The position numbers and the translations under genes were made by a program. Below are positions 63,230 to 63,858 of a DNA stretch of 64,000 nucleotides, piece after piece; the stretch's first letter is position 1, and the number at the start of each line of letters is the position of its first letter. The notes beneath the pieces were generated by a model. It searched no databases. It saw only the letters and a program-made list of their open reading frames with translations, and was not told the origin of the DNA. This DNA comes from Escherichia coli (GTDB taxonomy: Bacteria > Pseudomonadota > Gammaproteobacteria > Enterobacterales > Enterobacteriaceae): assembly GCF_048403405.1 (NCBI RefSeq), contig NZ_CP183129.1. One strand, 5' to 3'.

Positions 63230-63403
63230 TCACATTATTTTGATTTTGACATCATAACTTTCAAGCCCGGTCATTTTTTCTCGTGCAGTGAAGCGAATTT
63301 CAGAGACTTCTTTCCCTGTATTCTTGTTCAGCTCGGCGATTTTTTGCGCGATAAAGTCAGCGATTTCCGTTTCGGCTTGTTTTTTTAACTCTTCAATATT
63401 CAC
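63230..63403 (-). CDS. gnsA: GnsA (secG-null suppressor), 57 aa, GTG start; absent from the ORF track (<60 aa)
   Basis: Manual minus-strand translation: (V/M)NIEELKKQAETEIADFIAQKIAELNKNTGKEVSEIRFTAREKMTGLESYDVKIKIM; GAGG ~8 nt upstream of GTG. Confidence 0.8.
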   Translation of the reverse strand: MNIEELKKQAETEIADFIAQKIAELNKNTGKEVSEIRFTAREKMTGLESYDVKIKIM

Positions 63404-63623
63404 TGTTAACCTCTTCTGGTCTTAAAAGACAGCAACACGCCAGTAAGGTGTTGGTTCCCGGTACCCTGGTCAGGTAAGAAATGTTATAAGCCATCTCCCC
63501 GAAAGATTCAATAATCAACAGGTTATCGCTTACTATACATACAGCGTTGAAGAAAAATAAGGCAGATATAAAAAAGGCTCCACGAGGGAGCCTGATATTA
63601 TTTTGTGAAATCCAGCGGCGCAT
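63393..63623 (-). CDS. ymcE: Small protein YmcE, 76 aa
   Basis: [50 protein letters not shown]...; overlaps gnsA start by ~11 bp. Confidence 0.75.
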   Translation of the reverse strand: MRRWISQNNIRLPRGAFFISALFFFNAVCIVSDNLLIIESFGEMAYNISYLTRVPGTNTLLACCCLLRPEEVNSEY

Positions 63624-63858
63624 GCTCAGTGCGTATTTGCAGCGCGACGTTATCAAAGGTGATCATCGTCGATTTACAAAAAATACACTTTGCCCCTAAA
63701 GGATTTCGCTCCGTCACATCGAATGCCGATGTGCGGTACTGTGAACCATGACAACATGGACAGCGGAAATGGAGATGTTGAGTAATAACGGCAACCTTAG
63801 AGCGTAACAACGTTCGCTGCCGCGGGACCACGTTGCCCCTGCTCAATAGAAAATTCAA
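63598..63858 (-). CDS. Hypothetical small Cys-rich ORF (two CxxC pairs), overlaps cspG 3' end
   Basis: Track ORF with RCPCCHG and CIFCKST; N-terminus overlaps cspG out of frame, so the true start, if any, is internal or non-ATG. Confidence 0.25.

Follow-up and report, generated by a model that had tools for sequence, protein, structure and literature searches.

The cysteine-rich frame beside cspG in Escherichia coli is the known microprotein gene ymcF, with an ATT start that suggests translational coupling to the cold-shock gene

The Cys-rich reading frame lying next to the cold-shock gene cspG in the window, that is, the whole stretch of 64,000 nucleotides of E. coli DNA analysed here, corresponds in its last 62 codons to the known microprotein gene ymcF. 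The frame is thus already known: it was described in 2017, it belongs to the K-12 reference annotation and it has a Pfam family. Since the gene is the known ymcF, the finding is real but ordinary. Taken as a whole, the data are very probably best explained by a cold-shock locus of composition cspG-ymcF-(ymcE)-gnsA, in which the Cys-rich frame is ymcF and starts at AUU, and for which we infer coupling of ymcF to cspG.

Layout of the locus

As read from the sequence and the list of open reading frames (ORFs), the E. coli cspG-ymcF-ymcE-gnsA locus occupies the final 800 bases of the window. It is encoded on the minus strand, and yccM and torS are located upstream on the plus strand. The coordinates of the genes (Table 1) were converted from the RefSeq features of a 100%-identical genome. 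Of 5426 complete E. coli genomes searched by megablast, 5392 contain the segment 63150-64000, and the same five genes were annotated in all 24 listed E. coli RefSeq matches carrying the locus, these matches being spread evenly along the identity ranking. The layout in K-12 MG1655, where ymcF is b4723, is the same as in the window. As regards cspG, its first three codons lie beyond the window end and its TAA stop occupies 63797-63799; the product matched the NCBIfam CspG equivalog with 168 bits, and the pN/pS ratio within Escherichia was 0-0.10. Two annotated overlaps are present in the locus, of 26 nt between ymcF and ymcE and of 11 nt (63393-63403) between ymcE and gnsA.

Table 1. Coordinates of the features of the cspG-ymcF-ymcE-gnsA locus in the window
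Feature	Position	Strand	Basis
cspG CDS (full gene 63797..64009)	63797..64000 in window	-	RefSeq, 100%-identical genome
UAAGG, Shine-Dalgarno-like, for ymcF	63795..63799	-	read from sequence; function inferred
ymcF, 62 aa, ATT start 63784-63786, TAA stop 63598-63600	63598..63786	-	RefSeq, Pfam PF23641
5' extension of the mechanical 86-codon ORF, non-coding in that frame	63787..63858	-	comparative
YmcF Cys knuckle 1, C9-P-C-C12 (CPCC)	63751..63762	-	alignment of 36 sequences
YmcF Cys knuckle 2, C34-I-F-C37 (CIFC)	63676..63687	-	alignment of 36 sequences
Intrinsic terminator of the cspG-ymcF transcript (stem-loop 63575-63593 + T tract)	63567..63593	-	terminator scan
ymcE (sfa), 76 codons, coding status doubtful	63393..63623	-	RefSeq, NCBIfam, Pfam
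Promoter-like block 5' of gnsA	63483..63511	-	conserved position; function inferred
gnsA, 57 aa, GTG start 63401-63403	63230..63403	-	RefSeq, Pfam

Identity of the Cys-rich frame

The ORF list contains a frame of 86 codons at 63598..63858 on the minus strand, opened by TTG, and the two CxxC pairs which the initial annotation had noticed in it are indeed there, as CPCC and CIFC. The translated frame matched the Pfam family YmcF-like (PF23641) with 163 bits and an E value of 1.9e-48, above the gathering score of 27 bits, the complete profile (positions 1-62 of 62) being aligned solely to residues 25-86. RefSeq places ymcF, with its ATT start, at exactly the corresponding 62 codons in the 100%-identical genome, and likewise in K-12, under the product name "cold shock small protein YmcF". 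The protein encoded here is 96-97% identical to the closest E. coli variants in the database. Since the Pfam match is limited to residues 25-86 and the ATT start lies 10 nt past the cspG TAA, the frame is neither unannotated nor in overlap with cspG. Its earlier description as unannotated was wrong, ymcF being annotated in K-12 and in 24 of the 24 listed E. coli matches, besides having a Pfam family of its own. YmcF and its paralogue YnfQ were reportedly found by D'Lima and co-workers by means of cold-shock proteomics, with cold induction observed and the ATT starts mapped. Their paper (D'Lima et al. 2017, J Proteome Res 16:3722) is cited by others for the AUU starts. The Weaver 2019 preprint makes no mention of ymcF.

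The overlap with the 3' end of cspG, also proposed in the initial annotation, is true of the mechanical ORF, which shares 62 nt with cspG on the same strand and in another frame, but not of the real gene, which begins 10 nt after the cspG stop. According to the first reading, a protein of 86 residues, or of 70 residues if started from a second in-frame TTG at 63810, would begin inside cspG in the other frame. In the window strain the frame can be read without interruption from TTG 63858, and older annotations of Citrobacter, Kosakonia and Trabulsiella give proteins of 70-72 aa from upstream start codons. Nevertheless, this TTG is kept in just two of seven Escherichia sequences, its position being a stop codon in E. 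albertii, and in many species outside Escherichia the frame is closed by stops 3-9 codons 5' of the ATT. The 24-codon extension showed pN/pS ratios of 0.37-2.88 within Escherichia, the Pfam family begins precisely at residue 25, and neither TTG 63858 nor TTG 63810 is preceded by a Shine-Dalgarno element. Moreover, synonymous variability is undiminished at the 3' end of the cold-shock genes: in 27 csp genes preceding a ymcF, the mean synonymous difference was 0.498 for the last 24 codons (codons 47-70) versus 0.461 for codons 1-46 (p = 0.16), and the synonymous-site constraint that a second coding frame had been expected to leave in cspG was not detected. A protein of 86 or 70 residues is very improbable and, as a conserved feature, is effectively refuted.

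The comparative position of the start, the pN/pS ratios and the synonymous data together indicate that the 62-codon, ATT-initiated gene is real and the cspG overlap is not. The 24 additional codons, judged by sequence comparison, exist only through a frame staying open by chance in Escherichia and do not belong to the gene; the cspG overlap is an artefact that arises when the ORF is extended.

Conservation and distribution of YmcF

The search of protein collections yielded 137 clusters of YmcF homologues, with 53-97% identity, which span at least 15 enterobacterial genera (Escherichia, Salmonella, Citrobacter, Klebsiella, Raoultella, Enterobacter, Kosakonia, Leclercia, Yokenella, Kluyvera and Siccibacter among them) as well as phages. 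In an alignment of 36 sequences, 18 columns were invariant; these include C9, P10, C12, I35, F36 and C37, while C11 and C34 were at least 90% conserved. Within Escherichia, ymcF showed pN/pS ratios of 0.04-0.23, in line with purifying selection. Conservation of the CxxC frame, which the initial annotation had named as a point to be checked, is therefore borne out, the gene being kept across Enterobacteriaceae under purifying selection and with a zinc-ribbon-like product. The more general claim that small overlapped genes in cold-shock loci can be real and easily missed also stands, since ymcF is conserved and its homologue is unannotated in six of the nine phage records carrying it.

The conservation of the frame might alternatively be the by-product of a functional RNA, such as the STnc220 3' fragment or an element of the cspG 3'UTR, in place of a protein. 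The Rfam family STnc220 does cover the last 13 ymcF codons together with the terminator. However, substitutions in the ymcF frame are overwhelmingly synonymous, conservation peaks in the core of the Cys knuckles, far away from the 3' end, ATT and ATG are exchanged at a single aligned codon, and the length is constant at 62 codons in nearly all of the 80 loci compared, so that an explanation by RNA function is hardly credible.

In lambdoid phages and prophages, a module composed of csp, a ymcF-like gene, ynfN and gnsB adjoins the lysis genes, which points to YmcF moving together with the Csp RNA chaperone in a mobile cassette for cold adaptation. No PHROG family was found for YmcF or YmcE, and PADLOC gave no matches for a defence-system assignment.

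Start codon and its link to csp

In a survey of 80 species-level loci, out of 191 found, the codon aligned with YmcF residue 1 was ATT in 40, ATG in 33 and ATC in three, the remaining four having an ATG 1-3 codons away. In 16 of the ATT loci no in-frame ATG, GTG or TTG occurs between the ATT and the upstream stop. The use of one codon or another followed the state of the neighbouring cold-shock gene. With an intact csp just upstream, the start was ATT or ATC in all 38 scored loci, and the distance from the csp stop to the ymcF start was 9-10 nt in 37 of them and 29 nt in the other one. The same pattern was seen by eye in two additional loci (L006 and L020), as well as in the window, in the K-12 paralogue ynfQ of the Qin prophage and in phage Tritos, the ATT start of the last two lying 10 nt after cspI. 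In contrast, where csp was pseudogenised or absent, ATG was found in 33 loci, a shifted ATG in four and ATT in four or five. Three of the loci with ATT and no adjacent csp (L047, L074 and L079) depend on this codon, and a fourth (L066) has ATG as its next codon. The association between start codon and csp state gave a Fisher p of about 8e-19, a figure which ignores phylogeny and is inflated by kinship between the loci. This contrast between ATT or ATC beside an intact csp and ATG where csp has decayed or is missing may be a new observation.

ATG-type ymcF genes were found in at least five different upstream contexts. In the Klebsiella oxytoca group, in Raoultella and in the second copy of C. 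braakii, the gene is preceded by a csp pseudogene full of stops and starts with ATG; in C. sedlakii, a degenerate csp is fused in frame to ymcF and the start is again ATG. Both states coexist on one contig of C. braakii, 3.5 kb apart (L013 and L081), the other copy consisting of csp followed by an ATT start. In seven loci with an ATG-type ymcF and no csp, a cspA-type leader was searched for with Rfam and no match was obtained. Another candidate, a leader mini-ORF (MKKGYYYY) standing in for csp in the three csp-less ATT loci, was rejected, its ATG being missing in L074.

All csp-adjacent loci carry T[AG]AGG at the matching position, and in the window the cspG stop codon itself forms part of UAAGG, 8 nt before the AUU. 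The AUU at 63786, 10 nt after the cspG stop, is the translation start, with the UAAGG that holds this stop as its Shine-Dalgarno-like element. The use of ATT or ATC with an intact csp, as opposed to ATG without it, suggests that translation of ymcF is coupled to the upstream csp. Under such a mechanism, the weak AUU would make YmcF synthesis dependent on ribosomes which translate cspG and terminate on it, by coupling or re-initiation, and YmcF would be produced only when, and in proportion as, Csp is made; once csp translation is lost, AUG would be selected at the ymcF start.

Alternatively, ribosomes might initiate independently at the AUU by means of UAAGG, the weak codon keeping YmcF levels low and the link between ATT and csp reflecting shared ancestry. 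The 8-nt spacing of the Shine-Dalgarno-like element, the three lineages holding ATT without an adjacent csp and the lack of phylogenetic correction in the association statistic are in agreement with this possibility. So is the predicted folding around the ymcF start, which reached a minimum free energy of -24.5 kcal/mol (z = -0.35 versus shuffled sequences) and revealed no significant occluding structure; since the fold is no stabler than that of the shuffles, it gives no support to a structure that upstream ribosomes would need to open. Nevertheless, every decay of csp in place, in the K. oxytoca group, Raoultella, C. sedlakii and the second C. braakii copy, was accompanied by a switch to ATG, and the distance between stop and start is fixed in nearly all csp-adjacent loci, which makes independent initiation unlikely, though not to the point of being dismissed, and leaves translational coupling as the reading preferred here.

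Transcript, terminator and expression in the cold

The Rfam cspA thermoregulator matched positions 63743-64000, its 5' end being cut by the window, and spans cspG into the start of ymcF; in the locus of another Escherichia representative (L003) the match is full length. A terminator composed of a 7-bp GC-rich hairpin and a T tract was located by the terminator scan 4 nt past the ymcF stop, inside the ymcE ORF, and it is conserved across Escherichia. The match of the thermoregulator into ymcF and the hairpin after its stop point to cspG-ymcF as the transcription unit. In this context, ymcF is co-transcribed with cspG from a cold-inducible cspA-type promoter and leader located beyond the window end, and the transcript most likely ends at the hairpin and T tract. 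In two published transcriptomes the ymcF RNA level tracks that of cspG. The paralogue ynfQ has the table entry 'cold shock induced' and varies in step with cspI and cspG.

The homologous terminator segment of Salmonella is the 3' end of Rfam STnc220. This family, classified as an sRNA, is in fact the 3' end of ymcF, the tail of a protein-coding mRNA, an observation which may be new.

gnsA and the status of ymcE

The gene gnsA was correctly recognised in the initial annotation as a frame of 57 codons with a GTG start, overlapping the 3' end of ymcE; the ORF list and RefSeq agree on this point, so that the gene, described there as absent from the ORF track, does figure in the ORF list used here. 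Its product matched Pfam GnsAB_toxin (PF08178) with 122 bits, above the gathering score, pN/pS within Escherichia was 0-0.13, and a Shine-Dalgarno element (AGAGG) lies at 63410-63414. The start position is conserved among orthologues, with GTG or ATG at the same aligned codon in 15 loci. Hence gnsA is a separate conserved gene. Multicopy GnsA and GnsB are reported to be enhancers of unsaturated fatty acids (Sugai et al. 2001). Inside the ymcE ORF there is a promoter-like block on the minus strand, with TTGAAT at 63506-63511 and TATAAC at 63483-63488 separated by a 17-nt spacer, which was also found 5' of gnsA in Escherichia and Citrobacter and 5' of gnsB in K-12 Qin and phage Tritos. A consensus promoter scan did not call this block; gnsA is probably expressed from it. 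The possibility that the gnsA/gnsB leader inside ymcE forms a conserved RNA hairpin was also considered and discarded, RNAalifold returning three trivial pairs and a hand-drawn CTGG/CCAG helix showing no covariation.

The coding status of ymcE itself is doubtful. It might be a genuine young protein specific to Escherichia, the proposed membrane antitoxin of GnsA, in which case the coding overlaps of ymcF, ymcE and gnsA would be real. In favour of this, both K-12 and every one of the 24 listed E. coli matches have ymcE annotated, it has Pfam (PF15939) and NCBIfam (NF007379) families which it matched with 187-189 bits, above the cut-off, and YmcE-GnsA is listed in the literature as a type II toxin-antitoxin pair, with reference to Wei et al. 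2015, the 11-nt overlap with gnsA resembling toxin-antitoxin coupling. Furthermore, the small ORF ynfR, which covers the terminator at the paralogous Qin locus, yielded a tagged product of 21 aa, YnfR, that was induced by cold, so that translation in the ymcE region is possible.

Against a genuine gene, the ATG of ymcE is lost in four of six representatives of other Escherichia species (L004, L006, L007 and L043), the frame is shifted in L003, L005 and L043 and interrupted by an in-frame TGA in L004, and pN/pS ranges from 0.36 to 1.4, with three comparisons showing non-synonymous changes alone. No homologues were found outside Escherichia and Shigella. Genes homologous to gnsA occur without a neighbouring ymcE homologue in 11 Citrobacter loci, and gnsB does so in Qin and phage Tritos; two loci (L009 and L020) show a 40-codon stretch of ymcE similarity adjoining gnsA, and nothing more. 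The ORF contains the cspG-ymcF terminator, and in its 3' half conservation extends to all three codon positions, as in a regulatory region common to the gns genes. PADLOC gave no match for YmcE or GnsA. On balance, a genuine ymcE is a serious possibility, yet a doubtful one. Rather, ymcE may be a decaying ORF restricted to Escherichia which lies over the terminator and the conserved block upstream of the gns genes, and this observation may also be new. The real overlaps of the locus, ymcF/ymcE and ymcE/gnsA, thus all involve its least credible ORF.

The two proposals may be combined, AUU serving as an obligate coupling device that is replaced by AUG after csp decay, and ymcE being an accidental ORF and not a gene. 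The chances of this joint reading are put at slightly less than even.

The YmcF protein

YmcF has 62 residues, with two CxxC knuckles about 21 residues apart, and is probably a four-Cys zinc ribbon as far as its sequence allows one to predict. The AlphaFold2 model showed a mean pLDDT of 61.4, which means low confidence. A Foldseek comparison with the PDB gave no match at E <= 0.001, zinc ribbons being the top-ranked among weak, non-significant matches, and a profile search of PDB sequences with YmcF yielded nothing significant. Given the poor AlphaFold model and the lack of a significant structural neighbour, the zinc-ribbon assignment is based on the Cys pattern. A weak match to the NCBIfam ECs_2282 CxxC family was obtained (E 0.006), and the paralogue YnfQ has been given a rubredoxin-like model in a 2026 review. 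The likeness of a segment of 11 residues to the Rieske box II motif and to the UvrA knuckles (E 0.01-1) was taken as chance. No functional data on YmcF were found in the literature. Our best guess, held with low confidence, is that YmcF might act as a small metal-stabilised module binding nucleic acids or proteins, working together with the Csp RNA chaperone at low temperature.

Significance

The case of ymcF is a reminder that small genes initiated at ATT still slip past gene callers, most of the phage homologues being unannotated. The contrast between ATT with csp and ATG without it provides a testable model for the synthesis of a microprotein slaved to a cold-shock chaperone. If true, the AUU coupling device would represent a clean natural experiment on termination-reinitiation at a non-canonical start codon. 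If ymcE is not a gene, what lies there is an accidental ORF covering the terminator of cspG-ymcF together with the promoter and leader of gnsA, and YmcE-GnsA would come off the list of E. coli toxin-antitoxin systems; in fact, the data that speak against ymcE cast doubt on a toxin-antitoxin assignment which has been propagated in reviews and models. Finally, one Rfam 'sRNA' family, STnc220, proves to be the end piece of an mRNA that codes for a protein.

Comparison with known systems

The closest relatives of the gene described here are YmcF (b4723) and YnfQ (b4724) of K-12, both of PF23641. By its position after cspG, its length, its ATT start and its sequence, the window gene is ymcF; the sequence before codon 2 reads GTT-ATT in the window strain and ATT-ATT in K-12, and otherwise nothing of substance differs. 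With the four-Cys zinc ribbons and rubredoxin-like proteins (the N-terminal ribbons of TFIIE-alpha, Rpb12 and NrdR, and ECs_2282) YmcF shares the two CxxC knuckles, although it has no significant match to them in sequence or structure and its metal binding is predicted only. The listed YmcE-GnsA toxin-antitoxin pair comprises the same genes as the window, the upstream ORF likewise overlapping gnsA by 11 nt; however, the joint inheritance expected of such partners is not seen, gnsA and gnsB being widespread without ymcE and ymcE decaying within Escherichia.

Coupled gene pairs in which a Shine-Dalgarno element overlaps the upstream stop are known as cases of termination-reinitiation. The coupling of cspG and ymcF is only predicted, and no significant occluding structure accompanies it, but the pair shares with them a short, fixed spacing of 9-10 nt and a Shine-Dalgarno-like element inside the end of the upstream gene. 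As for the start codon, infC and pcnB are E. coli genes that begin at AUU, a rare codon giving weak and regulatable initiation, and ymcF resembles them in this respect. In infC, nevertheless, the AUU stands at a free-standing start and serves IF3 autoregulation, whereas in ymcF it is placed 10 nt past a highly translated gene and gives way to AUG once csp is lost.

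Start codon of ymcF and the upstream csp gene

Among the retrieved species-level ymcF loci (L003-L082, around position 1490-1503; 63784-63799 in the window), an ATT or ATC start was found in all 38 with an intact csp gene just upstream, the distance from the csp end to the ymcF start being 9-10 nt in 37 of them and 29 nt in one. The start was ATG where the upstream csp was a decayed pseudogene or absent, the combination of decayed csp and ATG-start ymcF occurring in the Klebsiella oxytoca group, Raoultella, C. sedlakii and the second C. braakii copy. Since the start codon varies with the state of csp, these sequence comparisons suggest translational coupling at a non-canonical start.

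In Citrobacter sedlakii, the csp that precedes ymcF is degenerate, with W11E and with VFVPS in place of the VFVHF motif, and its stop codon has been lost; therefore, a single frame stays open from csp through ymcF, which may be either a Csp-YmcF fusion or a pseudogene.

In lambdoid phages (records H26-H34), a csp/ymcF-like/ynfN/gnsB cassette adjoins the lysis genes. In 6 of these 9 records the ymcF-like ORF lacks annotation, and no PHROG family covers it; the ATT start is the presumed reason.

The 3' end of ymcF and the ymcE-gnsA region

The Rfam family RF02077 (Salmonella sRNA STnc220) scored 102 bits in Salmonella loci (L014 and L023, 1647-1726) as against 29.9 bits in the window. Because the family coincides with the final 13 codons of ymcF plus the terminator, the STnc220 'sRNA' is the tail of an mRNA that codes for a protein.

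In the K-12 Qin prophage, ynfR (21 codons), which when tagged has been reported to be cold-induced, starts 2 nt after the stop of the ymcF paralogue ynfQ, and its reading frame passes directly through the terminator hairpin. No equivalent ATG follows the ymcF stop at the cspG locus (63567-63600, compared with the Qin locus).

Judged by sequence comparison across Escherichia, the pattern of change in ymcE is not that of a coding gene: start-codon loss, frameshifts and an in-frame stop were found, pN/pS is near 1, and its occurrence is limited to Escherichia/Shigella. The cspG-ymcF terminator falls within its span, which also covers a block conserved 5' of all gnsA/gnsB genes.

The position of the promoter-like block is conserved upstream of Citrobacter gnsA, Qin gnsB and phage gnsB; a consensus promoter scan made no call on it. 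The inverted repeat beyond gnsA, with no clear T tract on either strand, is likely a transcript-end hairpin common to gnsA and yccM.

Coordinates of the features discussed
Feature	Sequence	Position	Strand	Remark
ymcE	window	63393-63623	-	annotated 'antitoxin' of GnsA
TTGAAT-17 nt-TATAAC block	window	63483-63511	-	promoter-like; about 80-110 nt upstream of gnsA GTG
Inverted repeat, GAACATCACC ... GGTGATGTTC	window	63196-63224		perfect, 10 bp; between convergent gnsA and yccM stops
RF02077	window	63560-63640	-	
YmcF motif	window	63751-63771		residues 6-17
ynfR	L084 (K-12 Qin)	889-954	-	
csp-ymcF region	L012 (C. sedlakii)	1260-1690		
Phage ymcF-like locus, example	L083 (phage)	1501-1689		

Comparison with known metal-binding motifs

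The YmcF motif is similar to CPCHGSQY, the box II motif of Rieske proteins, and to the CPxCHG knuckles of UvrA, with E-values of 0.01-1, which are not significant, and the likeness is probably a generic metal-knuckle similarity.
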